A DNA stretch of 46,151 bases from an uncultured Actinomycetes bacterium (GCA_963704885.1 CAVPIB010000006.1:1-46151), one strand, 5' to 3'; numbered from the stretch's first letter, positions 11,115-42,582 are shown. The notes: a model not told the origin generated them from the sequence alone. Numbers and translations are program-made.

Positions 11115-11137
11115 CCCGGCCTCTCTAAGGCAGTCCG

Positions 11138-18483: not shown

Positions 18484-19883
18484 GACCGAACCTCCAGCTC
18501 GGGACTTCCCTGCGGGTCGAAGCGGCGCTGGGCTGTGCCGATGAACGTTCGGGTCGACGACGAGCGTCGAGAGATCGAGGGAGGTATCGAGATCAAGACG
18601 AGGAACAACGGATACAGCTGCACCCGTTCGCGGGTCAGCAGGCCGAAGTTGGCGAAGCTCGAGAACGCGATGATGAACAGGACGGTGAACACGGCGCAGA
18701 ACACGACGTACGGCTGACGTCGCATGGAGCGGATCGCAGCCGCGATCCACCGACGTCGCCAGAGGACGAGCACCATCAGCACGGTGCCCTCGATGGCGGC
18801 GAGCAGCGACTGGAGATTGTGGGCTTCAAAGACGAACGGTCGGAACAGCACGGTGACGGCGGCCAGCGGCGCCCGGATCGGGGAATCGACGATGGACGGA
18901 GCGAACTCGGCCCCTCCCTGCGATGTTCTGTCCTGAACATCGATCAGGGCACCGCCAACACCACCACTCGTGTCGATCCCCGAGTTGCCCAGGAACTGAT
19001 CCGTTCGCACGACCATCACGGCCGCGAGCACCACGACGGCGACGATCGAGCCCACCTTCACGATCGGCGCGAGCTCTCTCAGGCCCTTCCGGCCCTTCCG
19101 CGTCACGATCGCGGCCGCGAGCGAGACGGCGACCAGTCCTGCCATCGGAGGCCGCAGCATCCCCGCCAGCCAGAGGCCGATGCCACCCACGATCAGGCCA
19201 CGCAAGACCGAGCCGCCCAGGATCCTGGCCACGCCGAACGCCGCCAGACCGAGGCTGAACATCATCAACGCTTCCTTCCCGGTGCTCGACGGCCAGAAGA
19301 CGAGCGATGGGAGGAAGAACAGCAAGTATGCGTACGACCGAGGCCGGCCCGTCGGCACCGCGATCGTGAATGCGCGGTAGAAGAGGAATAGTCCCCAGAA
19401 CCCCAACCACGAGAAGAAGAGGAACCCACCCATCTTCGACGGTCCGATCAAGGCGTAAACCAAGCCCGTCACGTTCTCGACGAACGGGGTTCCGGTTGTC
19501 AGGTGGATGCTGCTGAAGTCGAGGTGTCGGAACGGGTCCGCGAGGGCAGCCCCGGCTGTGTGGTAGCGCGTCGCGTCGGCGACCCCTCCGTAGACGGTGA
19601 ACGCCACGTAGTACCTGGCGACCGCGCCTGCGAGCTTCACCACCAACGCCACGAACAGCAACCGGAACGTCCCGGCTTCTGACTCGCGCGCCGCTTGGCG
19701 GCGTAGCGCAGGCACACTCAGGATCAACAGGGCGGGAGCGATGAGCACTCCGCCCCAGACGTCGAAGGACGTCCTTTCCACGATGAGCAGCACGGCCGAC
19801 ACGTATCCAGCGATCAGCACCAGCCCGAAGAGGGCGAAGAGCGCAGGCGATGAGATGGAGGCATGCGTCTGACGAGCCTGCAT
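18480..19883 (-). CDS. Polytopic membrane protein, candidate Wzy-type polymerase (GT-C-like)
   Basis: About 11 TM with a large extracytoplasmic loop; DATRYH, FWPSSTGKE, LFRPF, NFGLLTRERVQ; sits inside the EPS operon. Function is inferred. Confidence 0.65.
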   Translation of the reverse strand: MQARQTHASISSPALFALFGLVLIAGYVSAVLLIVERTSFDVWGGVLIAPALLILSVPALRRQAARESEAGTFRLLFVALVVKLAGAVARYYVAFTVYGGVADATRYHTAGAALADPFRHLDFSSIHLTTGTPFVENVTGLVYALIGPSKMGGFLFFSWLGFWGLFLFYRAFTIAVPTGRPRSYAYLLFFLPSLVFWPSSTGKEALMMFSLGLAAFGVARILGGSVLRGLIVGGIGLWLAGMLRPPMAGLVAVSLAAAIVTRKGRKGLRELAPIVKVGSIVAVVVLAAVMVVRTDQFLGNSGIDTSGGVGGALIDVQDRTSQGGAEFAPSIVDSPIRAPLAAVTVLFRPFVFEAHNLQSLLAAIEGTVLMVLVLWRRRWIAAAIRSMRRQPYVVFCAVFTVLFIIAFSSFANFGLLTRERVQLYPLFLVLISIPPSISRRSSSTRTFIGTAQRRFDPQGSPELEVRS

Positions 19884-25515: not shown

Positions 25516-26832
25516 TCAACTCGCGGTGGGTAGCGGATCTGCTGACCGGTTCCTACGTAGATGAAGGCCGGCGTCCACCGCAGCGCCTGGGTCGAACAGG
25601 TTCCGTCCATCGAACATGACCTTCTGCTCCATCAGGTGGCCGGTCCTCTCGAGATCGACCGAGCGAAGCCGCCCACTCCGTGCATAGGACAACGGCGTGG
25701 GCTCCGGAGGCGGCCTCGTACGGATCGGTCGCGGCCGCCGCACCGGTCGCGGTGATCTCGTCATCCGAGACAACCGGGTCGTAGACGACGACTTCGCACC
25801 CAGCCTCCCGCAGCCCCTTGATCAGGCGGGAGGGATGGAGCATCCCGGAGATCATCGGTGTCCGGTTTGAACGAGAGTCCCCAGACGGCGATCCTCTTGC
25901 CCTCGAGGTTCCACAACACCGCACGCATCCTCGCGATCAACCGGTCCTTCGCGTTGTTCACGCGAGCCACTTCCGATAGGAGCGAAAGATCAACTCCGAG
26001 CTCGGAGGCCCGATACTGGAACGCGGCGAGATCCTTGGGCAACAGAATCCCCCGTAGCCGATACCAGCCTCGAGGAAAGCTCGACCAATCCGGGGGTCCA
26101 ATCCCATGGCCTCGGCCACAGCTCTCACATCGGCGCCCGCCGCCTCGCAGACGTCGGCCACCGAGTTGATGAAGGAGATCTTGGTGGCCAGGAATGCGTT
26201 GGAAGCGAGCTTGATGAGTTCGGCCGTCGCGATGTCTGTTTCGATATACGCGCAGTCAGCCGTGTCAAGGATCGGTTGAATACACAGCTTCTTCAGCGCG
26301 ACCAGCGCCCGGTCGGTCTGTGCACCCACCACGATTCGGGATGGCGCCAGCGTGTCCTCCACAGCCTTGCCCTCACGAAGGAACTCCGGGTTCGACGCGA
26401 CGTCCAGGTCGGCTGACGGGTAGACGAGCTCAGCCGTCCGACGGATCCGAATCCCCCGTTCCAACCGGAACGGTCGACTTCTCAGTGAGCACCGTGTAGC
26501 CGCTATGAGATGAGGCGATCCTCCTGGCCTCGGTCTCGACCGAGGTCAGATTCGCCTCCCCCGTCTCGCGTATGGGTGTCCCCACACAGATGCAGCGACA
26601 CCTCGGAGGTGAAGGAGGCGTTGAGTGGGTCGGCCAGAGTGAGACGACCGGACCGCAGTGATTCCCTTATCAGCTCGGGAAGTCCAGGTTCGAAGAAGGG
26701 ACTGTCCCCTCTTCGGATCACGGCGAGCTTGTCAGCGTCGTCGTCCACTCCGAGAACGTCGTGACCGAGGTGGGCGAAGCACGCGGCACTCGTGAGCCCG
26801 ACGTGCCCGAGTCCAACGACGGTGACAAGCAT
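25516..26832 (-). CDS. ugd: UDP-glucose 6-dehydrogenase, frameshifted
   Basis: VVGLGHVGL, FFEPGL, SNPEFLREG, AELIKLASNAFLATKISFIN, GIGYGG..PKD, WGLSFKPDTDDLRD, FDGRN. Confidence 0.9.
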
Positions 26833-28293: not shown

Positions 28294-29282
28294 TCATCTG
28301 TGCGCGCCTTTTTCGCTCAGCTTCCCGACGTAACCCGTCCGAATCGTCCGTCTGGTTCCCGCCTCGAGACGCCGGCGCATTCGAATTCGCGGATACATGG
28401 GCTCGTATCCAAACTCGAGCAACAACAGCACGGCTACCGCCTCGACCATCTCTACATCGCTCGTCTCCATGCTGAGACGCCAATCCCGCATGCCTTCGGT
28501 GGGCGGCGGCGGTATTCGCATGGAATCTCGCGAACTCCGGCGCTGCTCGAGCCTTGACAAGCTCGCGAATGAGACTCCAGCATCACAGATTGCATGTCGA
28601 GACCGCAATCGAGTGTGCTCCTCAACCCCAAGCGTTCTCACCGTGTCGGCGACCAAGTCCTCATACCGGATCTCTACATACCGTGCCCCAAACTCTTTAC
28701 CCCAGAACGCACGCCTGCGCCGACCCATCTTCGCCAGCGGTCGAGCCGCCTGAAATACAGTAGTTGGCACGCCTGGATAGCGTAGCTCCCTCGCGACGTC
28801 CAGATACGACAGCGTCGCGTTCCAGAGGGTCCCGCACCAGGTGCACGAATGAGCAGTAGGAAACAGGCTAGCCAACAGGGGCAGAGCTTGGACGTACATG
28901 AGTATCTTGTTCACCACGCACCTTGCCCTGCGTCGTTGCATAGACCGAGTAGATTGCGTCTATAACGCTTGACAATGTATGCCCTGCCAGTCGGCCTATC
29001 CGTTCGCGAACGAGGTCTTCCAGCAGATTCCAACGCCTAACGCTCTCGTCGTTGAGTATGCGCGGCAGGAGAGATTACCGAGATCAAGTTGATCACCTCG
29101 GACATACAGGCCTCTCTCCCGCCAAACATATCAGGATGAAATTGGATTCTACGGAAATAGCCAAGATCGGGATGCGCATCCAGGCATACGGCAGACGTCG
29201 TGCCGGAACGTCCACAGCCGACGATGAATATGGGCGCCTTCGCCGACTGAACCTCTGACATCGAGCGCTCGTGCTCCTTCAA
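28294..29282 (-). CDS. PAPS-dependent sulfotransferase (Sulfotransfer_3-like), heavily frameshifted
   Basis: PIFIVGCGRSGTT..LDAHPDL, VNK..YV..LPLLASLFP, YVEIRYEDLV, LLLEFGY; both ends approximate. Confidence 0.75.
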
Positions 29283-29397: not shown

Positions 29398-31177
29398 CTA
29401 CAACGGCCTTGCGGCATCGGCAAGATGGACAGCCTCCCGGTAGAAGACGTTCGACGTATACAGGTTGCTTGCCGGCTCGAACGCCTCGAGCTGGCCGTCA
29501 CGTCACCCATCACGCGGTCACATAGGCTCAGCGTCGTAAGGCGGTGAGCTTCGACGACCAGTGTCAAGGCGCCACGGAGCCCTTCAGTGACTCCTGGATG
29601 TATCGCTCCGACTGGACATCAAGCGAGCTGGTGGGCTCGTCGAGGATCAGGACCTCCAGGCGCGCCGGCGAGCACCCAGGCCGGACAGGAGCCGGCTGGC
29701 GTTGACCTCCCGATACGGCATCAGCGCGCTGCCCGACGACCGTCTGATAGCCGTTGGACCATGACGTGATGTCGGCGTGGATGTGAGCGAGCCGGGCAGC
29801 CGCTCGATGGCGTCATCGTCCACCCAGTCGCGGTAGAAACGGATGTCTCGAAGACCGTCGCGCCGAGAAGATGGGGCTCCTGGGGGAGGTAGACGATCTT
29901 GCCGGTGCCCGGCCTCATCGTCGATCTCTCCAACCGGGATACCGTTGGTTCAACGTCTCCCCACTAGACGGCTCGCGAAGACGGAGGAGCACCTGCAGAA
30001 CCGTTGACTTTCCGGCCCCCAACCGGCCAACCACTCCGATGGCTTCACCTGCTTCCACAGCAAAGCTGAGGTTGCTGAGGACTGGACTGCCGGGCCTGTA
30101 CGCGAAAGATATCAACTGGGAGACCATCGGATCGAATCGATGGGCTGATGACCGGGGTGTTGTGCGTTGGCGCGGAACTGCCCTATCGCAATGGTCAGTG
30201 GATCAAAGTATGGAACCGCCTCCCCGACATTCTGGTACGCGGTCTGGAGCTGCTGGCCGTAGGTGGAGGCTCGGACGAGCAGGAGGACGACCGCCCGAGC
30301 GCCGCCAGGCGGCTTGTGCCGACGGCGTACAGAACCAGCGCCAGACCGGCTACGATCAGCAGGATCACTGCACTCTGGTAGACGACCGGCATGGTCGAGA
30401 TCAGCGTGCGCAGACGGAGCGAGATCGCTCCTGGAGTGGACTCGACTAGCGAACTGATCCGAGCTCGTTCAGACTCGGCGGCACCCAGAACCTCAACTTC
30501 CTCGGCCGTCCGGACGGACTCCGCGACACCGGCGGCCTGCGGAGAACCGAGGAAGCGGAAGTGGCAGCAGAGTTGCGCCGCACCCTGCGCGAGAGACGGC
30601 GCGCAAGGCCTGCGAAGAGCCCATTGCCGTCGCCATGACCACCGCGGCCACTCCGGGCTAAGCAAGAATGCGGATGCGGCGAGCACCAGAAACATCAACG
30701 CCGCGGCGAAACCGTTGGCTAGTTGGATGACGGCGAACCCCGCATGCATCACCTGTCCACCCATCAGTTCTTGGAGGTGACCCTCCTTCTCATCCGCCTT
30801 CGTAGACCATGAGGCGGCCAAGAACGAACCGAAGAGTTGGGTCCGGAGTTCGGTCTGCACCTCTCCGCTGAGGCGGGCGGGCAGCCGGCCGACAACGATC
30901 TGAAGGAGCAAACGGACGTGACCGCCAGGCTCCCGGCGATACATCAGGAGCACGGGGATGGACCCATCAATGACGATAGGCCCGAGGGTCAGCGTCGGAG
31001 CCTCTGCGGTCGTTGACATCATCGTTGCGATGTAGGCAACCAGGGCCGAGCACACCGGCCTCGGCAAGACCTGCTCCGGCGGAGGCGCACTGCGATCGCA
31101 ACAACGGTCCAGCGGCGCGAACCGACGAGCGGGGTCAGCCGAGCGACTGACGTGCGGACGTCAGCCCAGTCCCCCAC
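29398..31177 (-). CDS. ABC transporter with fused TMD-NBD (MsbA/PglK-like glycan flippase), heavily frameshifted
   Basis: N-terminal TM helices; [59 protein letters not shown]. Confidence 0.75.
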
Positions 31178-31205
31178 GCACACCGCGAGGAGATCGGCTG
31201 GGGCC

Positions 31206-32511
31206 TCACAACCGCACCACGTTCAGCCGGCGGGCGGCGCCGAAGGCGTTCCGCGCATCGAAGACGAGCTTGGCGTGCTCGGCCATCCAGTCCAGGTCGT
31301 ACGCGCTGTGCGGCGTGAGGACGGCCACTAGATCGGCGCGCGACACCACGTGGTTGTGAGCTCGGTTCGATGAATCGTTTGCCGTTCAGCGTGACATCGC
31401 CGACGTACGGATCGTGGAACGCCACCCGTGCACCACGCCTGTGCAGCAGCTCCATGATCTTCACCGCGGGCGACTCGCGAACGTCGCCGACGTCCGGCTT
31501 GTAGGCGACGCCCAGCACGAGGATCTGCGCGTCCTTCACCGCCGCCACGGTCGTTCAGCACCTCGCCGATCCGCGCCGCCGTCCAGGCGGGCATCTGTGC
31601 GTTGATGTCCTCGGCCGTCTCCCACGACGCGGAACTGATGGCCGGCGTCGCGCTTCATCTGCCACGACAGGTACGTCGGGTCGAGCGGGATGCAGTGCCC
31701 GCCGACACCCGGGCCCGGGTAGAACGGCATGAAGCCGAACGGCTTGGTCGCGGCGGCGTCGATGACCTCCCAGACGTCGAGATCGACCTCGTGGCACAGC
31801 ATGGCCATCTCGTTCGCGAGCGCGATGTTCACGTGGCGGAAGGTGTTCTCCAGCAGCTTCGCGAGCTCGGCCGCCCGGCACGACGAGACCGCCATGACCT
31901 TGTCCACCAGTTGCTCGTAGAAGAGCACGGCGACGCCCGTGGACTCGGCGTTAAGTCCGCCGACCACTCGCGGTACGTCGCGGAACGTGAACTCCGCGTT
32001 GCCCGGGTCGATCCGCTCGGGAGAGTAGGCCAACAGGAAGTCGCGTCCCGCGGCCATCCCCGACGTCTCGAGGGCGGGTCTGACGCGCTGCTCGGTGGTT
32101 CCCGGATACGAGGTCGACTCGAGCACGACGAGCGAACCTGAGGCTAGGTGGGATGAGACGTCTCCGACAGGCCCCGTCGATGTGCGACAGGTCAGGGGTG
32201 CCGTCGCGAAGCGGGGTCGGGACGCAGACGAAGACGAGGTGGCTCTCAGCCACGGCTGTTGCCGACGTGCTGAAGGTCACCCGATCCGTGAGCAGCGCCG
32301 CGCGCATCACCTGCTCGTCGACACCCGCCACGACGGGTTGGCCGTCGGCAAGCTCCTTCACGCGCACCGCATCCGTATCGATGCCAGTCACGGAGAATCC
32401 GGCATCAGCTGCGGCACAGGCCAGCGAGAGACCGACGTAGCCCTGTCCGATCACCGCGATCCGTGCAGTCCGGTTCAGGATGCGTCGACGAAGATCCGCG
32501 GTCCCCCGCAA
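31206..32511 (-). CDS. UDP-N-acetylhexosamine 6-dehydrogenase (WecC/WbpA/TviB family), frameshifted
   Basis: VIGQGYVGL, CVPTPL, LESTSYPGTT, AYSPERIDPGN, KLLENTFRHVNIALANE, GPGVGGHCIPLDP, GVAYKPDVGDVRESP. Confidence 0.92.
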
Positions 32512-32575
32512 GTGGTCTCCTCTCCCCGAAGGGGTGGTGGATGGATCAGGCGGAAGCGGCCTTGGGACCTTCGGC
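32179..32575 (-). repeat. Diverged direct repeat, copy 2 (dehydrogenase 5' end + upstream intergenic + regulator 3' tail)
   Basis: Aligns by eye with ~37684-38080. About 34 substitutions and one 3-nt indel over ~330 coding nt (~90%), mostly at third codon positions. Confidence 0.9.
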
Positions 32576-32673: not shown

Positions 32674-32925
32674 TCACGACGCCCGCGTCATCTTCGACTT
32701 CAGGAGCAGGGCCATACCGGAGATCGTGCCGAAGTTCTGAGATACGAGCTCCTCATCGCGGATCTCCACCCCGAACTCGCTCTCCATGAACGACACGATG
32801 CTCAGGATCCCCATCGAGTCCACGACACCCTTCTCGATCAGCGGGTAGTCATCAGCGATGCGTTCCCGACTATCCCATCGCAGTTCATCAGCGATGAACG
32901 CACGGAGCCGATCCTCGGCCGTCAT
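32674..32925 (-). CDS. Stand-alone acyl/peptidyl carrier protein (PltL/RedO-like role)
   Basis: 83 aa, acidic; GVVDSMG phosphopantetheine site; ESEFGVEI; SD GAGGAGG. Confidence 0.92.
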   Translation of the reverse strand: MTAEDRLRAFIADELRWDSRERIADDYPLIEKGVVDSMGILSIVSFMESEFGVEIRDEELVSQNFGTISGMALLLKSKMTRAS

Positions 32926-32946
32926 GAAACCCCCTCCTCGATGAGC

Positions 32947-34521
32947 TCAGTTTGTCGCCAGCATCCGTCGGTCGATCTTTCCGGTGGACGTCCTCGGGAG
33001 CTCGGTCCTGAAAACGAACCTCTCCGGAATCATGTAGTGCGGGATCCGTTCAGAGCAGAACCGAACAAGATCGCGGGCCCCGACGTCATCTCGAACGACG
33101 ACGTAAGCCCTGATGCGGTTCGTGATCAACTCGTTCGGAACCGCCGTTACCGCGCACTCAAGAACGCTTGGATGGGCGTAGATGGCCGCCTCGATGTCGC
33201 CGAGATCGATGCGGTAGCCGCGGCTCTTGACCTGATTGTCCCGCCGCCCGAGAAGCAGATAGTTCCCTTCGTCATCCTGCCGCACGAGATCCCCAGTTCG
33301 ATAGATAGGATCCTGCGATCCGAGTGCACGTGGATCGCGGATGAGCCCCCCTTGTGTTAGTGGCTTGTCTCCCCAGTAGCCCTTCATGACGCTCGATCCG
33401 CGAACACAGAGCTCGCCCAAGCCGCCATGGACCGTCGGTGTGCCGTCTTCGTTGAGGGCGAACACTTCGACGTTGTTGATTGCGGCGCCGATGGGGATCG
33501 GATCGTTCGAATCGGGTTCGATAGGTCGCACTCGGTAATACGTGCATACGTTCGTCTCGGTCGGGCCATAGAGGTTGAGGAACTCCGCGCGGGGAAGCAG
33601 CGACATCAGCTGACGAAGGTACTTCGTGGGAAACACCTCACCGGCGAACAGGACGCATCTGAGGTGAGGCAAGGCCGCACTCTGGAGCCCGCCGCGCTGC
33701 ACAAGCATAGTGAGTGCCGACGGGACCGAGTACCAGATCGTGATGGCGCTCCGGTCCAGGAAGCGGACAGTCTCGATCGGAAACACGAGCGCTTCGGGGG
33801 GCACGAGGACGACACGAGCGCCTCCTTGTGCAGCGGCGAAGACGTCGAAGATCGAGAGGTCGAAGTGCAAGGGCGCATGACTGGACAACCGGTCGTCTCG
33901 GCGCACGCCGCAGAGCTCGGTCGCCCAATCGACGAACGTGAGCCCGTTCAGATGCGAGAGCATCACGCCCTTGGGATCGCCCGTCGACCCAGATGTGTAC
34001 AGGACGTACGCGAGGTCAAGGTCGATCGTGTCGATCGACGGAGGTGTTGCCGGTTGATCCTGCAGAGCAGCGGCGGTGACGATGCGGGCGGGGGTCGCCT
34101 CGTGGTCGAGCCCATCATCGTCGGGCGCGTTCAGGACAACGAGCGCACGCATAGGTGCCCCATGTTCCGCGAGAGCGCCCCAAGCTTCCGCCTTCTCGAT
34201 GCCCGTCACTATCAGGTTAACGTCACAATCTCGGACGATGTATGCGAGACGGGCCGCAGGAGCCTGAGGATCGAGCGGGACGTACGCCGCCCCCGCCTTC
34301 AGGGTCCCGAAGATGCCTACGAGCGACTCGAGGGACTTATCGAGGAAGAGGCCGACGCGATCACCGCGCTCCACACCCGACTCGATCAGCAGGTGTGCGA
34401 GTCGATTGGATCGAGTCTCCAACTCTCCGAACGTGACGCTTCGTGGACCGTCCACGACGGCAACGTCTTCGGGCTGCCTATCCGCAGAATGCTGCAGAAG
34501 GTGGTGCAGCAGATGATCCAT
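32947..34521 (-). CDS. Stand-alone amino-acid adenylation enzyme, probable L-proline:PCP ligase (PltF/RedM/AnaC type)
   Basis: LAYVLYTSGSTGDPKG, HFDLS, NLYGPTETNVC, YRTGDL, GRRDNQVKSRGYRI, LPRTSTGKIDR; manually read specificity code DLFYLALVCK. Confidence 0.88.
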   Translation of the reverse strand: MDHLLHHLLQHSADRQPEDVAVVDGPRSVTFGELETRSNRLAHLLIESGVERGDRVGLFLDKSLESLVGIFGTLKAGAAYVPLDPQAPAARLAYIVRDCDVNLIVTGIEKAEAWGALAEHGAPMRALVVLNAPDDDGLDHEATPARIVTAAALQDQPATPPSIDTIDLDLAYVLYTSGSTGDPKGVMLSHLNGLTFVDWATELCGVRRDDRLSSHAPLHFDLSIFDVFAAAQGGARVVLVPPEALVFPIETVRFLDRSAITIWYSVPSALTMLVQRGGLQSAALPHLRCVLFAGEVFPTKYLRQLMSLLPRAEFLNLYGPTETNVCTYYRVRPIEPDSNDPIPIGAAINNVEVFALNEDGTPTVHGGLGELCVRGSSVMKGYWGDKPLTQGGLIRDPRALGSQDPIYRTGDLVRQDDEGNYLLLGRRDNQVKSRGYRIDLGDIEAAIYAHPSVLECAVTAVPNELITNRIRAYVVVRDDVGARDLVRFCSERIPHYMIPERFVFRTELPRTSTGKIDRRMLATN

Positions 34522-34536
34522 CCTCGCCTCACCCCC

Positions 34537-35682
34537 CTACAAGCCGAGCAGTCCCGCGATCAGGTTGCGCTGCATGTCCGATGTCCCCGAGTAGATGCGA
34601 CTTCCGATCGCGTCGCGCACTTCCCTCTCAAGCTCGTACTCCGCCATGAACCCGTACCCGCCGTGGATCTGAAGAGCATCGAGACTCGACTGCACGAACG
34701 ACTCGCTCACGTGTAGCTTCACCATGGCCGCGTCGAGCGCAGATGGTCGCTCAGCGCTCATGAGCCACCCTTGTCGGTAGAGGAGCAGGCGGGAGGTTTC
34801 CAGGCGCATCTTCATCTCCACGATCCGGTGTGAAACAGCCTGGAACCGCGCAATGGGTTGACCGAACTGGTGCCGCTCTCGCGCATATTCGACGCACCGC
34901 TCGACCTGCCGTTGCATGGTTCCGATCGCACTGGCAAGGATGCAGCTGCGCTCCCAAACCATCGAGTGGTTGAAGATGGCCATGCCCACGCCGGGCGTCC
35001 CCAGGACGTTCTCCTCCGGGACGTAACAGTCGTCGAAAGCGACCTCTGCCATCGGCGATGTTCGCAGTCCCATCTTCTGTAGCGATCTACCCACGGTCAG
35101 ACCTGGGGCATCGCGCCGTACGAGGAACGAGGAAATCCCGATGAAGCCGGCTGCCGGATCCGTGTTCGCGAACACCACGAACACGTCTGCGATGGGGGCG
35201 TTCGTGATGAAAGTCTTTCGACCGGACAAGAGGAACCCGTTGTTCTTCCTTTCGGCCGTTGTCCGGAGGCCGAATGCATCGGATCCGAAGCCTGGCTCCG
35301 TCATCGCCTGAACGCCGATCAGGGAACCGTCGTTCAGGCCCGGGAGGTACTTCCGCTTCTGCTCCTCGGTCCCGAACCGCACGATCGGCGTTACGCAGGA
35401 CCACAGTTGTGCATTGATAGAGAAGATCAGACCGTTGTCCCTGCATCCGTATCCAAGCGCTTCCATGGCCAGCATGATCGTCAGTGGATCGGCGCCGCTG
35501 CCTCCGAACTCCTGCGGGATGGGCAATCCCTGGATACCCACGGCAGCGCACTTCTTCCACCCCTCTGTCGAGAACTCCTGTTCCTCGTCGCGGAGGACGA
35601 TGTCACCGTTCAACTCGCTTTCGGCGAACCTGATGATCTCCTTGCGAAGGTGCGCTTGTTCCGCGGTCAGTGAGAAGTCCAT
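34537..35682 (-). CDS. Acyl-CoA dehydrogenase-fold, probable L-prolyl-PCP dehydrogenase (PltE/RedW/AnaB type)
   Basis: LGYGCRDNGLIFSINAQ, MTEP..GSD, KTFITNAP, KMGLRTSP; Glu in WERSC and IYSGT instead of IYEGT. Confidence 0.85.
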   Translation of the reverse strand: MDFSLTAEQAHLRKEIIRFAESELNGDIVLRDEEQEFSTEGWKKCAAVGIQGLPIPQEFGGSGADPLTIMLAMEALGYGCRDNGLIFSINAQLWSCVTPIVRFGTEEQKRKYLPGLNDGSLIGVQAMTEPGFGSDAFGLRTTAERKNNGFLLSGRKTFITNAPIADVFVVFANTDPAAGFIGISSFLVRRDAPGLTVGRSLQKMGLRTSPMAEVAFDDCYVPEENVLGTPGVGMAIFNHSMVWERSCILASAIGTMQRQVERCVEYARERHQFGQPIARFQAVSHRIVEMKMRLETSRLLLYRQGWLMSAERPSALDAAMVKLHVSESFVQSSLDALQIHGGYGFMAEYELEREVRDAIGSRIYSGTSDMQRNLIAGLLGL

Positions 35683-35693
35683 CCCGCCGCCCC

Positions 35694-36622
35694 CTAGCTC
35701 GCCGCGATTCTCAGCCTCGAAGCGAGGCGATCAACCCAGTCAACGACGTCCTCCAAGACCGAGTCCTGGGTGATGATGCTCGTGAGGCCATGCACCTGGC
35801 CGGGCAACGTCCTTATCTCCGTCGTCTCCGCCCCGATCGCGAGCAAATCACCGAGGTACCCGGCTCGGGCTTGCTCGAAGACACGCCACAGATCCTCGTC
35901 AGAGCCGTACATGAGAAGCAGCGGTATCGCCTTCTGCACAATCGCAGCAAGGGGTGACGTGAAGTTGCGGCTTGCTCCCGCCTGATCGTGTTCATCGCCG
36001 GTCCGACGATCGTCGACGAGTTGGCGCCATTTGGCCCTTATGACACGGAGGTAGGTTTGCCGATGGACGGGGTTGCGAATGTTCCGAATCACATGTGGTT
36101 GGATGGCCCGCCGCGCACACTCACTGAGGGTCAGCCTCGCCGCCAGATCCGTGGCGATCCAGTTTCCCATCTGAAAATCGCGCACGGGGGTCGCGATGAG
36201 GACGACCCCTTCAAGCCCAGTGACGTGCGGAGCACATGTGAGGGCAGTTCGCCCCCGAAACAGGAACCGATCAACACGACCCGCTCAAGCCCGACGTTAT
36301 GAGCCCAATGGACCGCGCCCATCAGGTCATCCGTGAAGGGATTGGCGAGTTCGAACGGTGCGACCTGCCCTTCGCTCTCGCCGATGCCGTGGTAGTCGAA
36401 GCGCAGAGCGTGGAAGCCGAGACGCGCGACCTCACGGCACAAGCGCACGGAAAACCGGTTGCGATTGGTGGACAACGGCGTCCCGCCCCCCGACAGAGGG
36501 ATCACGACTGTTCCGAGAGGATCGCCCGTCGGCTCCGTCAAGATGCCGAACAGCTGATGGTTCGCGGCCTTGAAGAAGACCGGTGACTCTTCACCGGCCC
36601 CTGCGTGGACCTGACCGGTCAT
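35694..36622 (-). CDS. Alpha/beta-hydrolase-fold putative acyltransferase with Cys nucleophile (one frameshift near 36250)
   Basis: NRNRFSVRLCR, LRFDYHGIGESEG, nucleophile elbow GSCFG, LLMYGSDED, QVHG; ATGA overlap with the upstream gene. Confidence 0.8.
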
Positions 36623-37548
36623 CGTGGAACGACCGGCAGCTGTTTCGAGAACCAGTCGACTGTCAGTTCCACCATGACTTTGCTGCGTTCCTTCGCTGAC
36701 TCCTCTTGCCATCGACTCCCCGGGAACCACCAAGCCTCCTCCCCCACGATCGACTGGACATCGACCGCGATTCCTCGCTCGTTCAGGCGATCGACGAGCT
36801 CCGCATACTCGGCTCTCAGGTCCCGTCTGCGATCGACCTGAAGAAGGAGGACCTGTCGCGGCAGGGCACCAATCGCCTGAGACAGTTGGCGCTCCGACGA
36901 ACTCTCGAAGATCGCGCGGTCGATCGGGAAGCCGGAGACATCGGCGAATCCGACCCGCTGCATCTCCTCGAATGGATCCGTATGTGTCTCCGAACCGCCG
37001 CTGAGCTGGGCCATCGCCCGAAACCGGAAGACCTCTCGGAAGTACCTTCGCCCGTCGAGCGCTGGCTCCCAGAGAGCAAGTGGTGCCTTCGGAGTGCCGG
37101 CGGCCATCTGGGCTGCGACGAGCGCTCCCCAACGGGTCCCGATGAACCCGACAGCCTCCGACTGCGCGCGCTCAGACAACCACTTCATGGCTTCTGCGGC
37201 GTCGTCCCGCGCGGTGTCGAACGTGACTTCTGAGCTTTCGCCGTCACTATGGCCGGTACCCCGATAGTGAAACCGACCGACCGCCACACCGCGAGCAGCC
37301 AGGGCGTCAGCTAGCAGGACTTCCCGACGGTAGTTCGCGAGGAACTCGCATTGGAAGGGCGAACACACCAGCACGGCGGCTCGGATGGGCTCGTTCGGTA
37401 GATGGACGCAGCCGAACATCTTGGACCGCTCGCTGCCGAAGAACTCGATCTCTACCCGTGTTCGGGAGCTTCGATCACGCGGATCGCTTGCGACACGGCG
37501 TGTCCCTCCTGAGCGTTCGATGGATGGCGGCTTGTCGTCGATCAGCAA
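36619..37548 (-). CDS. Alpha/beta-hydrolase-fold protein with Arg at the nucleophile position
   Basis: VLVCSPFQCE, RFHYRGTGHSDG, elbow GTRWGALVA, LWEPALDG; resembles exosortase-system-associated hydrolase 2. Confidence 0.8.
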   Translation of the reverse strand: MLIDDKPPSIERSGGTRRVASDPRDRSSRTRVEIEFFGSERSKMFGCVHLPNEPIRAAVLVCSPFQCEFLANYRREVLLADALAARGVAVGRFHYRGTGHSDGESSEVTFDTARDDAAEAMKWLSERAQSEAVGFIGTRWGALVAAQMAAGTPKAPLALWEPALDGRRYFREVFRFRAMAQLSGGSETHTDPFEEMQRVGFADVSGFPIDRAIFESSSERQLSQAIGALPRQVLLLQVDRRRDLRAEYAELVDRLNERGIAVDVQSIVGEEAWWFPGSRWQEESAKERSKVMVELTVDWFSKQLPVVPR

Positions 37549-37563
37549 CGATGGTTTCGGACG

Positions 37564-38013
37564 TCAGGCGACGGACTGTTCGCCCAGCTCCACGATCGTC
37601 CTGATCGCCGCTGCGCGCCGACGGAAGCAGTGACGCCGGCTGATACGCAGCTCGCGGGCGATCTCGTGCGCGTCGAGCTGCTTGATGTGCGACAGGTCGG
37701 GGGTCCCGTCGCGGAGCGGAGTGGGGACGCAGATGAAGACGAGGTGACTCTGGGCCACGGCTTCCGCCGACGTGCTGAAGGTCACCCGGTCCGTGAGCAG
37801 CGCCGCGCGCATCACCTGTTCGTCGACTCCCGCCACGGGTTGGCCCTCGGCGAGCTCCTTCACGCGTACCGCATCCGTGTCGATGCCGGTCACAGCGAAT
37901 CCGGCCTCAGCCGCGGCGCAGGTCAGTGAGAGACCGACGTAGCCCTGTCCGATCACGGCGATCCGTGCGGTCCGGTTGAGGATGCGTCGACGAAGGTCGG
38001 CGGTTCCCCGCAT
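37564..38013 (-). pseudogene. In-frame chimera: 5' ~110 codons of the NDP-sugar dehydrogenase fused to the 3' ~39 codons of the sigma-region-4-like gene
   Basis: MRGTADLRRRILNRTARIAVIGQGY...PDLSHI|KQLDAHEIARELRISRRHCFRRRAAAIRTIVELGEQSVA*; junction at about 37683. Confidence 0.88.
37577..37680 (-). repeat. Diverged copy of the 3' end of the 38052..38414 gene
   Basis: AHEIARELRISRRHCFRRRAAAIRTIVELGE versus AHEIARELHISRRQCFRRRAAAIRAIVELGE (about 38082-38183). Confidence 0.9.
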
Positions 38014-38051
38014 GTGGGTCCCCATTCCTGGAAGGAGAGGCGGTTGATGGG

Positions 38052-38414
38052 TCAGGCGGAGACGGCGATCGGGCCGGCCGGCTCGCCCAGCTCCACGATC
38101 GCCCTGATCGCGGCGGCTCGCCGGCGGAAGCACTGGCGCCGGCTGATATGCAGCTCCCGCGCGATCTCGTGCGCCGGGAGCTGTCCCAGGTACCACAGGT
38201 AGAGCAGGCGACGGTCCTGCTCGGCGATCTGGCTCATCCGCCAGCAGAGCTCGTCACGCTCGCCGAGCTTCTCGAGCAAGCCGGGCCGCATGCCGTCACC
38301 GGCTGTGCGGTCGCGGCGCGCGGCACCCACCTTGTAGAACGACGAGGTCGTCGGCTGCCACCAGTCGGTGTAGGTGATCAGCGCCCACACGACCAGGTTA
38401 GGCGAGGAGAGCAT
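38052..38414 (-). CDS. Small protein with sigma-70 region-4-like HTH and no region 2
   Basis: IAEQDRRLLYLWYLGQLPAHEIARELHISRRQCFRRRAAAIRAI; SD GGGAGAGG before ATG. Confidence 0.75.
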   Translation of the reverse strand: MLSSPNLVVWALITYTDWWQPTTSSFYKVGAARRDRTAGDGMRPGLLEKLGERDELCWRMSQIAEQDRRLLYLWYLGQLPAHEIARELHISRRQCFRRRAAAIRAIVELGEPAGPIAVSA

Positions 38415-38480: not shown

Positions 38481-40160
38481 TCATCGGCCCGCCCACATAT
38501 CCAGCGCCTCGTCGCGCGCGGCCTGCCCCTCGGGGGCGTCGTCGATCCGCACCACCTGCTCCTCACGCTTCGGCGCCCGGTAGTAGTTGTAGTAGCGGTG
38601 CCGCCCCAGCGACTTCGAACGCTCGGTCGCGTCGTTCAGGACCACGCCGACCACCTTGCCGCCCAGGCGCGTCAGCAGCTCGGTCGTGCGGGTCGCCAGC
38701 TCGGCGTGGGTCTTCCCCGCGCGCGCGACCACGACGACCGCGTCGGCGTGTGCCAGCAGGGGCACCACGTCGCTCGCGACCAACAGCGGCGCGCAGTCCA
38801 GGATCACGACGTCGGCGATCGCCCGGGCTCGCTCCAGCAGCTGTTCCATCTGCGCGGAGCCCAGGAGCTCCACGTAGCGATCGGATGCGGCGCCACTGGG
38901 CATGACCGCCAGCATCACGATGGTCGGCAGACCGATGTACGGGAGCAGGTCGAAGCGAGCGTCTGGGTCGTCCAGCTTCCCGATGGCCGACAGCGCCTCC
39001 GCCAACCCTGGCCGATCGGGAACTCCGAAGAGCCGGTCGATGTCGGGGCGCCGCAGGTCGCATGAGAGCACCAGGACGCGCCTGCCCACCTCCGCGTACG
39101 CGGCAGCCAGGTTCGCGGCCACCGTGGTCTTCCCGTCACGCGCCTCCGGACTGGTGACCACGATCATCTTGGGCGGGCGGCCGTCGGACGCAGTCGATCC
39201 GTTCCCTCCGGTGCGGCCGTTGCCGTTGGAACCTCCATCCCCGACCGCCGATGTTCGCGAGATCGCGAGACCCAAGAGCCGGAACGCGTCGGCCGGGCGC
39301 GACATAGGGTGGATGGCCGTAACCACCTGCTTCCTCCATCGCCGCGAGATGTCGGGAATCTCCGCCAGCACTGGAAGCGCGAACCCCGCCTCGGCCTGCG
39401 CTCGGGTGCGGATCCGCGTGTCGTAGCGCTCCAGGACGAGTGCGAGCGCGATCCCGGCGAGCAGGCCGAGGATCGCCGCCAGGAGCGCCCTGGCGCCGCG
39501 GCTCTCGGGCGGCCTGAAGCCCTGGCCGGTGGCCGGCTCGGCCTTCGCTTGCTGGATGATCGTGAGCGAGATCGGAGCCGTCCGCTCCAGGGCCAACTGC
39601 GACAAGCCGGCTCGGAGGGGCGCGAGTTCGGCGCGGCCCGCGCCTGCGGCCTGCAGCGCTTCGAGCTGCGCCTGGAGCTGCGCCAGTTGCTGGTCGGCGC
39701 GACGGGCTTTGATCTGCTCCAGGTACTGCCGGAGCGCATGGGAGAACGCGGTCGACACTTCTTCGGCCCTCGACGGCATGGTCCCGTAGCCAGTGATGTC
39801 CAGGAATCCGCTCGTTTCGTCCGCCGCCGCCTGCACCTGGTTGCGGAGCGCGAGGGAACTGCCTTGGTAGTCCATGAGCTGCGATGCGAGCGCTACCACG
39901 TCGGGGAGCGTCACTACCTGAGCGAGCGCCTCCATGCCGGTGATGGACCCCGCCGTGTCGGTCGTCTGGACCCCTCGCCCAGGTGACCCCGGATCCCAGA
40001 GCACGGTCGTGGCCGAGTACTCGGCGGTAGAGCTGGTCACCGGAGCGTCATGCGAGGTCGGCGTGGTGAAAGATGCGGTGGCCACCGCGACCACGACGGC
40101 GGCAACGATCACCCACCACCGACGCCTCAGGATCGTCAGGTACTGGACCGGCTGCTCCAC
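38481..40160 (-). CDS. Polysaccharide co-polymerase / BY-kinase (Wzc-like fusion)
   Basis: YLTILRRRWW plus TM, a second TM, ERYDTRIRT, LPVLAEIP, Walker A SPEARDGKTT, DLRRP, VILDCAP, C-terminal Tyr cluster RYYNYY. Confidence 0.92.
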   Translation of the reverse strand: MEQPVQYLTILRRRWWVIVAAVVVAVATASFTTPTSHDAPVTSSTAEYSATTVLWDPGSPGRGVQTTDTAGSITGMEALAQVVTLPDVVALASQLMDYQGSSLALRNQVQAAADETSGFLDITGYGTMPSRAEEVSTAFSHALRQYLEQIKARRADQQLAQLQAQLEALQAAGAGRAELAPLRAGLSQLALERTAPISLTIIQQAKAEPATGQGFRPPESRGARALLAAILGLLAGIALALVLERYDTRIRTRAQAEAGFALPVLAEIPDISRRWRKQVVTAIHPMSRPADAFRLLGLAISRTSAVGDGGSNGNGRTGGNGSTASDGRPPKMIVVTSPEARDGKTTVAANLAAAYAEVGRRVLVLSCDLRRPDIDRLFGVPDRPGLAEALSAIGKLDDPDARFDLLPYIGLPTIVMLAVMPSGAASDRYVELLGSAQMEQLLERARAIADVVILDCAPLLVASDVVPLLAHADAVVVVARAGKTHAELATRTTELLTRLGGKVVGVVLNDATERSKSLGRHRYYNYYRAPKREEQVVRIDDAPEGQAARDEALDMWAGR

Positions 40161-40699
40161 GCCGCCTCCCCTCCCCCCACCAACAACGCGACCGCCGCGG
40201 CTTGGTTAGGGACGCCGAGGCGCTTGTAGGCGCGGGTCTTGTGCTGCTCCACGGTCTTAGGACTGATCCCCAGCGCGCGGGCGATCTGCTTGCCCACGAG
40301 ACCCTTCGACGCCAGCCGCAGCACCTGCTCCTCGCGACGACTGAGAGGCGACCGCGGCGTGGTGCGCGGCCGAACGCCCGGAGCGAGCGCCCAGGCCAGC
40401 TGCGCGACCGGTGCATCCATGGCGACCACGATGCTGCCCTCGTCGTCTTCGCCGGAGGCCGCGTCGCCGATGATCACGACGCGCAGACCGCGCTTGAGCA
40501 TGCGCGCGACCGCAGCCGTAGCGCCGGGGAGGCGAGCGTCGATCGCGACCGCGTCGGCTTGGCGGGCGAGGTGCTCTGTCTCCTTGGAGCTGGTCGCGAC
40601 GCCCACCGGCACGAGCGCCGGGTAACGCGCCAACGCCGCCGCGATGCCCTCGGCGGCGAGCGCCTCGCGGTGCGCGACGACCACGGCGCGGACGCTCAC
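40136..40699 (-). CDS. LuxR-family regulator with degenerate receiver domain
   Basis: LSRREEQVLRLASKG..KQIARALGISPKTVEQHK..KRLGV; shortened receiver without the acidic pocket (VVVAHRE). Confidence 0.85.
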   Translation of the reverse strand: MSVRAVVVAHREALAAEGIAAALARYPALVPVGVATSSKETEHLARQADAVAIDARLPGATAAVARMLKRGLRVVIIGDAASGEDDEGSIVVAMDAPVAQLAWALAPGVRPRTTPRSPLSRREEQVLRLASKGLVGKQIARALGISPKTVEQHKTRAYKRLGVPNQAAAVALLVGGGEAAWSSRSST

Positions 40700-42582
40700 G
40701 ACGCCTCCCCCACGCTGACCGGCTCCTCGACGCGCACGACGTCGGTGCCTCGCATCCGGTCTGCCAGCTCGTGGCGGCGGCCCTCGCGGGCGAGCGTCTC
40801 CAGGTCGCGAAGACGCCGACGCAGGACCGCCGGATCGGGGGGCGGCGGCTGGGCCACGACGATGCCCGGGTACCCGGAGGGCACCGGCGCCTCGTCGTCG
40901 TCCACGAGTTCCTCGTGCTGCTTCTCTCCCGGCCGTGCGCCGACCACCTGCACGGCGATGTCGCGACCGGGCACGCGGCCCGAGAGCCGGATCAGCTTCT
41001 GCGCCAGCTCCAGGATGTTGACCGGCTCGCCCATCTCGAGCGTGAACACCTCGCCGCCCTCGGCGAGCGTGGACGCCTGCAGTACCAGCTGCACCGCCTC
41101 CTCCACGCTCATGAAGTAGCGGGTCATGGCCGGGTCGGTGACCGTCACCGGGCCGCCCGCGGCGATCTGGCTGAGGAACGTGGGCACAACAGAGCCGCGA
41201 CTGCCGAGCACGTTGCCGAAGCGCACCGCGCAGAACACGGTGTCGCGTCCGGCCAGCCCGCGGACGATCTCCTCCGCCATCCGTTTGGATCCGCCCATGA
41301 CGCTCGCGGGGCGAACGGCCTTGTCGGTCGAGATCATCACGAACCGTTCGGTCCCCACGAGCGATGCGGCCTCGACCACGTTCGCCGTGCCGAGCACGTT
41401 GGTGAGGAGCGCCTCCTGCGGGTGCTCCTCCAGGATGGGCACGTGCTTGTGGGCGGCAGCGTGGAAGACCACCTCGGGACGATGCTCCAGGAAGACGTCG
41501 ACCATCCGTCCGCGGTCGCGGATGTCGGCGAGCACCGACGTCGGCCGCGTCCCGTCGAGCGTCATCAGCAGGTCGTGCAGGTGCGTCTCGTCGTTGTCGA
41601 GTAGCGCCAGGTGCATGGGCTCGAAGCCCCAGACCTGCCGCGCGATCTCGGAGCCGATCGAGCCGCCGGCCCCGGTGATCAGCACCCGCTTGCCGCGCAG
41701 CAGATGCCGCACGGCGGCCAGGTCGGTCTCCACCTGCCGGCGCCCCAGCAGGTCCTCGATGCGCAGGTCGCGCAGGTCGCGTGCCGTGACGCGGCCGTCG
41801 ACCAACTCACGGACCGACGGCAGCACCCGGAGCGACACGTCGGCCTCCTCGCACAGCATGGCGACCTCACGGATCAGCTCGCTCGTGGCCGTGGGGATGG
41901 CCAGCAGCACCTGGTCCACGGCGAACGTCCGCACCAGCGTGGGGATCGCGGATCTATCGCCCATCACGGTCACCCCGTGGAGCGATCGGCCGAACGTGCG
42001 CGGGTCGTCGTCGACGAGCGCCACGATCTGGAAGCCGGCCTCCTCGGGATGACGCGAGACGTCGGTCAGTACCTGCGCGCCGGCGTCGCCGACACCCATC
42101 AGGAGCACCCGGTTCAGCTCGGCCTGCGCGACACGGCGCCGGTACCCGAAGAGACGGCTCTGGAAGCGGATCGCGCCGAAGGCCATCACGGCCGCCGCGC
42201 TCCCGAACGCGACCACCGACAGCGGGATCGGACGGTGCGCGGCATCGATCACCAGGTCGAGCGCGACCACCGCGGCGAAGCCGCAGAGGCCTGCCAGCAG
42301 CACACGCCTGGCTTCCTGCACGCTCGCATGGCGCCACATCTGTCCATAGAGCCCCCACCGGTAGTTGGAGAAGAGATGGATCGCCGCGATGACGGCCAGC
42401 AGTTCCCAGAAACGCTTCCAACTCTCCGAGGGCACCCGGCCGTGGAACCGGATGACGAGCGAGATCAGGTAAGCGGCGATCACGAGCAGCGCATCGAGCG
42501 CCGCGAGCGGGACGTCGCGCCGGATGCGGCCGACGACGCGGCCGGGGAGGTTGGAGTCGGCGTCCACGTGCGCGTCCCTCAT
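40696..42582 (-). CDS. Membrane-bound UDP-GlcNAc 4,6-dehydratase (PglF/CapD/WbpM family)
   Basis: About 4 TM, then IEDLLGR, TGAGGSIGSEI, FHAAAHKHVP, ISTDKAVRP.SVMGGSK, VRFGNVLGSRGSV, MTRYFM, RPGEK.HEEL. Confidence 0.95.
   Translation of the reverse strand: MRDAHVDADSNLPGRVVGRIRRDVPLAALDALLVIAAYLISLVIRFHGRVPSESWKRFWELLAVIAAIHLFSNYRWGLYGQMWRHASVQEARRVLLAGLCGFAAVVALDLVIDAAHRPIPLSVVAFGSAAAVMAFGAIRFQSRLFGYRRRVAQAELNRVLLMGVGDAGAQVLTDVSRHPEEAGFQIVALVDDDPRTFGRSLHGVTVMGDRSAIPTLVRTFAVDQVLLAIPTATSELIREVAMLCEEADVSLRVLPSVRELVDGRVTARDLRDLRIEDLLGRRQVETDLAAVRHLLRGKRVLITGAGGSIGSEIARQVWGFEPMHLALLDNDETHLHDLLMTLDGTRPTSVLADIRDRGRMVDVFLEHRPEVVFHAAAHKHVPILEEHPQEALLTNVLGTANVVEAASLVGTERFVMISTDKAVRPASVMGGSKRMAEEIVRGLAGRDTVFCAVRFGNVLGSRGSVVPTFLSQIAAGGPVTVTDPAMTRYFMSVEEAVQLVLQASTLAEGGEVFTLEMGEPVNILELAQKLIRLSGRVPGRDIAVQVVGARPGEKQHEELVDDDEAPVPSGYPGIVVAQPPPPDPAVLRRRLRDLETLAREGRRHELADRMRGTDVVRVEEPVSVGEAS

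Follow-up and report, generated by a model that had tools for sequence, protein, structure and literature searches.

A proline-to-pyrrole type gene cassette in a surface-polysaccharide locus: a candidate carrier-protein-dependent glycan acylation system

An uncultured Actinomycetes bacterium (GCA_963704885.1) carries a cassette of five genes which resembles the proline-to-pyrrole modules of natural-product biosynthesis and lies inside a surface-polysaccharide locus. The cassette is located on contig CAVPIB010000006.1 (C6); the whole of this contig, 46,151 bases, was analysed and is referred to here as the window. The genome is 3.0 Mb in 20 contigs, has a G+C content of 67% and is 97% complete. 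The five genes are arranged in tandem on the minus strand at 32674-37548. The first two, hyd1 (36619-37548) and hyd2 (35694-36622), encode alpha/beta-hydrolase-fold proteins; hyd1 is 309 amino acids (aa) long with Arg at the nucleophile-elbow position (GTRWG), and hyd2 has a Cys nucleophile (GSCFGG) and contains one frameshift. The third gene (34537-35682) encodes a 381-aa flavoprotein of the acyl-CoA dehydrogenase (ACAD) family, which belongs to the prolyl-carrier-protein dehydrogenase clade and has the motifs WERSC and IYSGT. The fourth (32947-34521) encodes a stand-alone adenylation (A) domain of 524 aa, predicted from its pocket code, DLFYLALVCK, to activate L-proline. The last (32674-32925) encodes a stand-alone PP-binding carrier protein of 83 aa, in which Ser37 of a DSM motif is the predicted phosphopantetheine site.

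The hyd1 stop and the hyd2 start overlap in an ATGA; the other intergenic gaps are 11, 15 and 21 nucleotides, each with a G-rich stretch that resembles a ribosome-binding site. Because of the overlap, the short gaps and these stretches, the cassette looks like one operon. A sequence-only reading of this DNA had described five co-directional, tightly packed genes between the wzc region and the genes for nucleoside diphosphate (NDP) sugars. The layout is confirmed at the coordinates given above, and so is the position: Wzc-like and CapD-like genes lie on one side and a UDP-glucose-dehydrogenase-like gene on the other. Four of the genes are intact; the description had to be corrected for the fifth, hyd2, whose reading frame is interrupted. 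The frame changes at a C5 homopolymer (G5 on the coding strand; 36252-36256), which in a three-frame translation lies directly after the nucleophile-elbow codons SCFGG. The N part is in the frame of 36622 and the C part in the frame of 36185; the downstream frame (RTALT...PVRDFQMG) matches hyd2 orthologs, which are single open reading frames (ORFs) of about 300-320 aa.

The A domain passes the amino-acid adenylation model TIGR01733 (376.9 bits, cut-off 317.4). A structure search was made with the pocket stretch alone (A-domain residues 190-350). Among solved structures the top match is 6o6e, an L-proline--[L-prolyl-carrier protein] ligase (143 bits, E 8e-41), presumably PltF; the next are 7thn, which has the same molecule name (89 bits), and DltA (74.5 bits). 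Ten pocket positions were read from the alignments and placed by GrsA numbering. Compared with DLFYLALVCK in the query, 6o6e has DLLYLALVCK (nine of ten positions identical), 7thn has DLFYIAWVCK (eight of ten) and DltA (3fcc) has DLMTLCTVAK, which differs at five of ten. The code had previously been read by hand; residue-by-residue alignment to the solved L-proline--carrier-protein ligase reproduces it. By its sequence, this is a pocket like those of stand-alone prolyl ligases.

The A domain and carrier protein could also be read as a Dlt-like D-alanylation system, or as a fatty-acid or aryl-acid ligase system, since DltA models match the A domain at 263-277 bits and acyl-CoA ligase models match it too. 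These scores are far below cut-off (DltA 277.5 vs 476; 263.7 vs 559.85) whereas TIGR01733 is passed; the pocket shares only half its positions with DltA but eight or nine of ten with the prolyl ligases, and the adjacent ACAD belongs to the prolyl-carrier dehydrogenase clade. Such a system is very improbable here, and the Dlt-like and fatty-acyl readings are rejected on the basis of the pocket code and model scores.

The pocket columns were also read in 29 A domains of the loci fetched from other genomes (described below), using only matches with an alignment longer than 400 residues; the fragmented copy in locus L110 was left out, and the L107 and L108 stretches yielded no A domain. Twenty-three of these A domains adjoin an ACAD. 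Their codes are DLFYLALVCK (14), DLFYVALVCK (5), and DLLYLALVCK, DLFYIAWVCK, DLLYNALVCK and DLINMAVSSK (1 each, the last in L012); 21 of the 23 therefore read DLFY[LVI]A[LW]VCK or DLLYLALVCK, and seven of them differ from DLFYLALVCK at one or two positions. The prolyl code is retained although the A domains share just 40-60% identity overall.

The carrier protein passes PF00550 (PP-binding; 26.4 bits, cut-off 20.8), and families of acyl carrier proteins match it weakly. The sole phosphopantetheinyl transferase match in the genome is at C1:817785-818057 (127-aa open frame) and is read as AcpS type; as it is the only one, the cassette carrier protein would depend on it.

Among solved structures, the four distinct proteins closest to the ACAD are without exception prolyl-carrier-protein dehydrogenases. 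They are 4irn (424.7 bits; 'Prolyl-ACP dehydrogenase'), 5zw0 (349.4 bits) and 6af6 (347 bits), both named 'L-prolyl-[peptidyl-carrier protein] dehydrogenase', and 6cxt (323.4 bits), which is Bmp3 according to a figure legend in PMC10849742. WERSC is aligned to WERGF of 4irn and WEKGC of 5zw0, so the catalytic Glu is kept. Both features that the sequence-only reading had singled out, this Glu and IYSGT in place of IYEGT, are found in the ACAD sequence and align to the same motifs of 4irn and 5zw0. PMC10849742 describes the conserved Glu as the essential catalytic base in AnaB and Bmp3, and states that RedW, PltE and Bmp3 remove four electrons to give pyrrole.

A quick maximum-likelihood tree of 51 ACAD sequences was supported by SH-like approximate likelihood ratio tests (SH-aLRT) only. 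It has no biochemically characterised reference because the phylum sample gave no RedW equivalog above cut-off (0 of 401 genomes). The 31 ACADs that are linked to a trio of ACAD, A domain and carrier protein form one clade (SH-aLRT 100), apart from generic acyl-CoA dehydrogenases; the window ACAD falls within a 12-row clade of phylum sequences (SH-aLRT 97). The tree is at odds with taxonomy. Metagenomic relatives of the ACAD number 7762 proteins at E<=1e-40; the best 119 listed, with the window's own excluded, are 66-76% identical to it.

The earlier assignment to the proline-loading and proline-oxidising trio type is borne out by the pocket code, the solved relatives and the scores of the PigA and RedW models. 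Taken on their own, proline loading and oxidation by this trio are highly probable from the sequence comparisons. Trp_halogenase-type halogenases are known to act on pyrrolyl-S-carrier proteins. Genes of the Trp_halogenase family are found beside homologous ACADs (L112, L062), which would favour a pyrrole product in the clade. By analogy, the product of the window ACAD might be pyrrole rather than the alternative, a pyrroline or dehydroprolyl thioester.

Judged by sequence, the two hydrolase-fold proteins differ from ordinary serine hydrolases. hyd1 matches TIGR03101 (hydr2_PEP) at 105.7 bits, below the cut-off of 202.75, and also matches Hydrolase_4; the N part of hyd2 matches TIGR03100 (hydr1_PEP) at 48.3 bits, below the cut-off of 168.45. 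In the protein Atlas, hyd1 is placed beside the cluster 'Exosortase A-associated hydrolase 2 family' (0.98). Relatives of hyd1 comprise 389 cluster representatives at E<=1e-30. In 95 aligned relatives of hyd1, R139 is at least 90% conserved at the nucleophile position, C62 near strand 3 is nearly invariant, and a conserved His is absent from the usual C-terminal triad position. Since Arg replaces the nucleophile and the triad His is absent, hyd1 is probably a non-catalytic partner subunit. In hyd2, C117 (the Cys of GSCFGAR) is invariant and the C-terminal H272 is nearly invariant among 69 relatives.

Several observations point to a physical association of the two proteins. Three of the 150 best hyd1 relatives (P0360, P0362 and P0377; metagenomic, about 615 aa) are hyd1-hyd2 fusions. 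In these, hyd1 is N-terminal and hyd2 (GxCFG) is C-terminal; GTRxG is found in P0362 and P0377, and no such elbow was found in P0360. In two other proteins, P0248 (625 aa) and P0278 (516 aa), hyd1 lies behind another N-terminal part. Complex prediction for the hyd1/hyd2 pair of genome G387 gave 0.90, vs 0.60 for the best of three controls; this mark is reached by 58 of 80 solved complexes and 2 of 110 mismatched pairs, a calibration which is rough here as own alignments were used. At least 61% of contacts are common to the runs, partner values of the predicted local distance difference test (pLDDT) are at least 78, and the interface is made up of the most conserved loops of both proteins. The prediction supports a hyd1/hyd2 heterodimer.

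The AlphaFold2 model of hyd1 has a pLDDT of 91.6; hyd2 was modelled via the G387 ortholog (pLDDT 88.6). Searches with hyd2 (Foldseek, VIA-align wide) and hyd1 (Foldseek) return generic alpha/beta hydrolases, among which no transferase family stands out. The best fold neighbour of hyd2 is a feruloyl esterase (Z 25.6), and its matches also include dienelactone hydrolases and the thioesterases DcsB (Z 23.7) and 1tht (Z 19.2). Generic folds and neighbours of this kind are consistent with a thioesterase, in which case the pair would release pyrrole-2-carboxylate or pyrroline carboxylate as a free small molecule, and the association with the glycan locus would be regulatory or accidental. However, a two-subunit pair with a dead partner and naturally occurring fusions exceeds the needs of simple hydrolysis, and the named families closest to the pair are those of exopolysaccharide gene sets. 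Release of a free acid is considered unlikely; the genomic contexts described below bear on it further.

The window contains many other genes for surface-polysaccharide synthesis. Upstream of the cassette, also on the minus strand, are genes for a small sigma-70 region-4-like helix-turn-helix (HTH) protein (38052-38414; Sigma70_r4_2 at 21 bits, below the Pfam cut-off), a Wzc-like chain-length/P-loop protein (38481-40160; AAA_31, ParA and CbiA match residues 331-515) and a CapD/WbpM-like NDP-sugar 4,6-dehydratase (40696-42582; Polysacc_synt_2 at 345.7 bits). Downstream lies the UDP-glucose/GDP-mannose-dehydrogenase-like (ugd-like) gene (31135-32511, minus strand). A DegT-type sugar aminotransferase (14676-15863, minus strand; DegT_DnrJ_EryC1 at 330 bits) and a priming sugar-phosphate transferase of the Bac_transf family (15924-16547, minus strand; PF02397 at 207.2 bits) are encoded further away. 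The window also holds a response regulator/kinase pair and genes for a family 4 glycosyltransferase (GT4), a carbamoyltransferase, a polysaccharide deacetylase, a GNAT protein and an ABC-2 transporter. Within the same locus are a DUF4012 protein of 580 aa (11138-12880), a 467-aa ORF without a Pfam match (18480-19883), homologs of which are found in the glycan loci L112 and L113 (37-40% identical), and a weakly sulfotransferase-like ORF (28294-28941). An Rfam scan of the window matched no RNA families.

The sequence-only reading had noted that no polyketide synthase (PKS), condensation domain or halogenase is present in the window. Across the whole genome there are 0 matches to Condensation, 0 to Trp_halogenase and 1 to ketoacyl-synt. 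A Condensation domain is likewise found in none of five other cassette genomes (94-98% complete). Exosortase (EpsH, PF09721) also gives 0 matches at E<=0.001 in the genome, and the TIGR03099 decarboxylase gives two, both on contig C4, at 169 and 107 bits vs a cut-off of 478.

The distribution of the cassette was surveyed in 401 genomes of the phylum, representing 248 genera, with thresholds of E<=1e-120 for the ACAD and E<=1e-15 for hyd1. An ACAD ortholog is present in 17 genomes (15 genera), hyd1 in 16, and both in 15; G170 and G017 have the ACAD without hyd1, and G178 has a weak hyd1-like match alone. Sixteen loci were fetched (L105-L120). Ten of these contain the ACAD and both hydrolases (L106-L113, L116 and L118, with L110 as fragments); the L119 stretch ends after 6.5 kb and contains hyd1 only. 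No hydrolases were seen in the fetched stretches of L105, L114, L115, L117 and L120; in the genome with L117 (G299), the contig with the ACAD also carries two hyd1-like genes at a distance of about 19-21 kb from it. The order of the cassette genes is shuffled between genomes and the set is retained. Five of the loci come from unpublished genomes: L111 (G174, with the same gene order as the window), L109 and L115 (G148), L105 (G343) and L119 (G088); the main pattern rests on G387, G140, G112, G287, G238, G161, G017, G098, G299, G130 and G170.

Homologs of the regulator, CapD, Wzc, HTH, ugd or glycosyltransferase genes of the window lie beside the cassette in 11 of the 16 loci (L106-L114, L117 and L120), so that the survey for the gene set in polysaccharide loci, proposed with the sequence-only reading, bears out the association. 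The Wzc-like gene has homologs in seven of the 16 (L106-L111 and L117); in the same seven, homologs of the HTH gene adjoin wzc, which makes this gene a conserved neighbour of the cassette. A total of 104 neighbouring ORFs from 12 of the 16 loci (L108, L110, L115 and L119 left out) were scanned after a crude codon-position G+C filter, and the commonest 25 of 109 Pfam families were tallied. The most frequent are GT1/GT4 (10-11), GerE (9), Response_reg (7), sulfotransferases (7) and Polysacc_synt_2 (6), and further families include ABC_tran (4) and UDPG_MGDP_dh (3). Sulfotransferases often adjoin the cassette (e.g. L107 3509-4573, L112 7641-8558); from the gene content, the decorated polymer may also be sulfated. 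In L112 (G238), the ACAD of which is in the same 12-row clade as that of the window, a Trp_halogenase-family gene directly adjoins the ACAD and is followed by genes for a sulfotransferase, a polysaccharide deacetylase, an SLH protein, GT4, hyd2 and hyd1.

Close trios, with ACADs 50-61% identical to that of the window, are found in public species genomes of other phyla. In a metagenome-assembled genome (MAG) of Acidobacteriaceae (L008), the trio is flanked on one side by genes for Poly_export, Wzz, an AAA protein and a hexapeptide transferase, and on the other by a gene for a Bac_transf priming transferase. In L008 (14766-20581), and also in L007, L009 and L010, the trio is followed by genes for two further proteins, one with an A domain and a peptidyl carrier protein (A-PCP) and one that combines P450, A-PCP and thioesterase (TE) domains (P450-A-PCP-TE). 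The A-PCP pocket of L008, DAWFLGNVVK, is presumably a classical Leu code; a scan of ten L008 ORFs showed no condensation domain, and the two proteins may represent a different carrier-protein-dependent route of glycan tailoring. In an Anaerolinea MAG (L014), genes for GT2, GT1 and a UDP-GlcNAc 2-epimerase (Epimerase_2) are followed by the trio and then by an Acyl_transf_3 membrane acyltransferase (13177-14289). In an Anaerolineae MAG (L062, 12840-18642), the order is ACAD, A domain, Trp_halogenase-family gene, carrier protein, Acyl_transf_3 and a protein with condensation, PCP and TE domains (C-PCP-TE).

These contexts argue against release of a free acid: the cassette is found in polysaccharide loci in 11 of 16 cases in the phylum and in two further phyla, and the Anaerolineae trio adjoins a membrane acyltransferase, not a hydrolase. 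One locus speaks for it, namely L105: the neighbours of the trio there are two 4HBT thioesterase genes, FtsH and an aromatic amino acid lyase, and homologs of the window's glycan genes are absent. The ACAD clade serves both glycan and non-glycan settings, as indicated by L105, by L012 and by L148-L150 (see below).

Considered together, the cassette is somewhat more probably than otherwise a carrier-protein-dependent acylation module for the surface polysaccharide of the surrounding locus. In such a module, the stand-alone A domain would activate L-proline and load it onto the 83-aa carrier protein, as its sequence predicts. The flavoprotein would then oxidise the prolyl-S-carrier to pyrrolyl-2-carboxyl-S-carrier, or stop at the pyrroline or dehydroprolyl thioester. 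The invariant Cys of hyd2 would take over the acyl group as a thioester, with hyd1 as the dead partner of a heterodimer; the pairing is suggested by the fusions and the complex prediction. Finally, the acyl group would be passed in the cytoplasm to an NDP-sugar or the lipid-linked repeat unit, at a hydroxyl or an amino function, as the gene context suggests. An amino sugar is the expected product of the CapD-like and DegT enzymes in this locus, and its free amine is a candidate acceptor. The proposal of a glycan acceptor, made in the sequence-only reading, gains comparative support because the cassette recurs in polysaccharide loci of the phylum, occurs in glycan loci of two other phyla and is not accompanied by a condensation domain or other nonribosomal peptide synthetase (NRPS) or PKS partner; the nature of the product and of the acceptor is still deduced from context.

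The same chemistry could serve another acceptor, such as a lipid, another cell-wall polymer, or a protein made or exported by the locus. The G238 locus contains an SLH-domain beta-helix protein. Exosortase-type sets, to which the hydrolase pair is related, are tied by their NCBIfam names and family descriptions to protein sorting as well as to exopolysaccharide. On the other hand, the neighbours are mostly glycosyltransferases, NDP-sugar enzymes, sulfotransferases and ABC-2 or Wzc export genes, and the genome has no exosortase. An acceptor other than a glycan appears quite improbable.

Several points weigh against glycan acylation. Every functional step, including the product, the acceptor and the enzyme activities, is one that we infer. 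The ACAD falls below the curated equivalog cut-offs for PigA (NF053553, 478.7 vs 500) and RedW (NF045652, 438.1 vs 650); by these sequence models it is a member of the clade and the equivalog of neither. Its best solved relative, 4irn, is presumably AnaB, which stops at the 2-electron stage. The cut-offs of hydr2_PEP, hydr1_PEP and ligase_PEP_1 are all missed, and since the folds of hyd1 and hyd2 are only those of generic esterases, lipases and thioesterases, the pair could carry out plain hydrolytic release. The genome has a single phosphopantetheinyl transferase, of the apparent AcpS type. The co-occurrence counts overstate the support because kin genomes are not independent; they are to be read as a pattern and not as a statistic. 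Trios also exist outside glycan loci. In addition to L105, PKS is found among the neighbours of the non-actinobacterial loci, probably as the long ORF of L012. Large actinomycete genomes (L148-L150) contain ACAD-A pairs with ACADs 43-47% identical to that of the window, and the fetched 20-kb stretches contain no homologs of the window's glycan-locus genes; a halogenase-like match occurs in L149. Finally, the genome of origin has a frameshift in hyd2 and degraded glycan genes next to the cassette.

This degradation is extensive. Many polysaccharide genes are in pieces between about 21000 and 32600, and genes beyond that stretch are intact. Glycosyltransferase genes at 21.0-24.3 kb change frame, and partial-domain Pfam matches are found across 22-28 kb. 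The ugd-like gene is broken into at least five frame segments; its pieces lie in frames -3, -1, -2, -3 and -1 (tblastn with the L111 ortholog). A second UDP-sugar dehydrogenase fragment is found at 25958-26545, and ABC-transporter fragments at 29915-31067. Since most junctions lie away from long homopolymers, the breaks may be real decay and not read errors. The hyd2 frameshift and the broken glycosyltransferase and ugd-like genes suggest that the module is probably impaired in this genome.

The flanks of the cassette contain direct repeats. One copy (32179-32515), downstream of the cassette, is the 5' part of the ugd-like gene; the other (37684-38017), upstream, is an orphan 5' fragment of the same gene, and the two (families D1 and D2) are 89-90% identical. 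A repeat of the 3' end of the HTH gene is found at 37572-37697 vs 38075-38200 (82% identity). A chimeric ORF (37564-38196) joins the orphan ugd fragment to the copy of the HTH 3' end and holds residues 78-181 of UDPG_MGDP_dh_N. This is the pattern which a single-crossover (Campbell-type) insertion of a circle consisting of HTH 3' end, cassette and ugd 5' part would leave. The G+C content falls from about 0.70 to 0.60-0.65 across 20-37 kb. On account of the repeats, the drop in G+C and the conflict between ACAD tree and taxonomy, the cassette looks laterally mobile between related loci.

It is conceivable that this copy of the cassette is a decaying remnant which was acquired by recombination and is now inactive; such a history concerns this copy only and is compatible with a glycan acylation function of the system as a whole. 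The hyd2 frameshift, the fragmented ugd-like and glycosyltransferase genes, the partial-domain matches and the repeats, which resemble a recombination scar, are all consistent with it. So is the cassette of a close relative, G287. In its locus, L110, which is from the same family and is the closest syntenic relative of the window, the cassette is in pieces (7500-12500): the A domain is split into about five fragments, the match to the ACAD starts from query residue 37, and the hydrolases are fragmented, with one TGA inside hyd1. These pieces suggest either repeated loss of the module in the family or error-prone assemblies. Against a remnant, the other four cassette genes are intact in the window, with ribosome-binding-like sites, and hyd2 is broken by just one base of a homopolymer, a break which could be an assembly error or reversible slippage. 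On balance an inactive remnant is a substantial possibility, though the less probable one.

The cassette shares features with several known systems. All three parts of the type II NRPS trios (PltF/PltL/PltE, RedM/RedO/RedW, PigI/PigG/PigA and Bmp4/Bmp1/Bmp3, with AnaC/AnaD/AnaB as a pyrroline variant) are present; the chemistry of these trios is established, according to PMC10849742. In contrast to the trios, the cassette is found in a genome that, apart from the single ketoacyl-synt match, has no PKS partner, condensation domain or halogenase; it just misses the equivalog cut-offs, is joined to a Cys/Arg pair and lies in a polysaccharide locus.

The exosortase A-associated set (TIGR03098 ligase, TIGR03099 decarboxylase, TIGR03100 and TIGR03101) is similar in that an AMP-forming ligase, a carrier protein and two unrelated alpha/beta-fold proteins adjoin one another in a polysaccharide locus. 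hyd1 corresponds to hydrolase 2, hyd2 to hydrolase 1 and the A domain to the ligase (322.4 bits vs 592.35). All cassette scores are below the cut-offs, however, and an ACAD replaces the pyridoxal phosphate-dependent decarboxylase; the genome lacks exosortase, and the host is probably an actinobacterium and not a proteobacterium.

The proposed logic would also be like that of CouN7/CloN7 in aminocoumarin biosynthesis, where a carrier-bound pyrrole acid is moved onto a sugar, in that case noviose. CouN7 is a Ser alpha/beta hydrolase acting on a small-molecule glycoside, whereas the cassette would use the hyd2 Cys and a dead hyd1. As in DltABCD, a stand-alone A domain and a small carrier protein would feed an acyl group to an envelope glycopolymer; unlike DltABCD, the cassette has a prolyl-type pocket, different at half of the positions, and adds an oxidation step. 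No MBOAT or DltD-like gene was seen among the scanned window ORFs.

In the literature searched, which did not include subscription journals or supplementary files, no pyrrolylated polysaccharide, O-antigen or capsule is described, in agreement with the sequence-only reading, which knew of no polysaccharide with a pyrrole-2-carbonyl group; the same literature gave no match to the pocket-code strings and no function for the paired exosortase A-associated hydrolases. A paper on a Burkholderia exopolysaccharide cluster lists a TIGR03100 gene and guesses that it encodes a quality-control hydrolase. What appears new here is the joining of a known proline-to-pyrrole trio to a hydrolase pair typical of exopolysaccharide loci, probably in the service of glycan tailoring.

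A wider generalisation is put forward tentatively, as a proposal that falls somewhat short of even likelihood. Bacteria of at least three phyla (probably Actinomycetota, with Acidobacteriota and Chloroflexota) would decorate surface polysaccharides with pyrrole-2-carbonyl groups, which are sometimes halogenated and in the actinobacterial form are installed by a Cys/Arg heterodimeric acyltransferase; the exosortase A-associated sets of proteobacteria would use the same principle with another acyl group.

If glycan acylation is the function of the cassette, the proline-to-pyrrole module of natural-product biosynthesis would have a second, unrecognised use in the tailoring of cell-surface glycans, and an aromatic N-heterocyclic acyl group, possibly halogenated, would join the known chemistry of bacterial polysaccharides. 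The pair of hydrolase-fold proteins would define an acyltransferase made up of a Cys subunit and a pseudo-enzyme of the alpha/beta fold, and would offer a first clue to what the paired 'exosortase A-associated hydrolases' do. Genome-mining software in which any such trio counts as a secondary-metabolite cluster would have to qualify that call. With thousands of metagenomic ACAD relatives, the family to which this cassette belongs is a large one.

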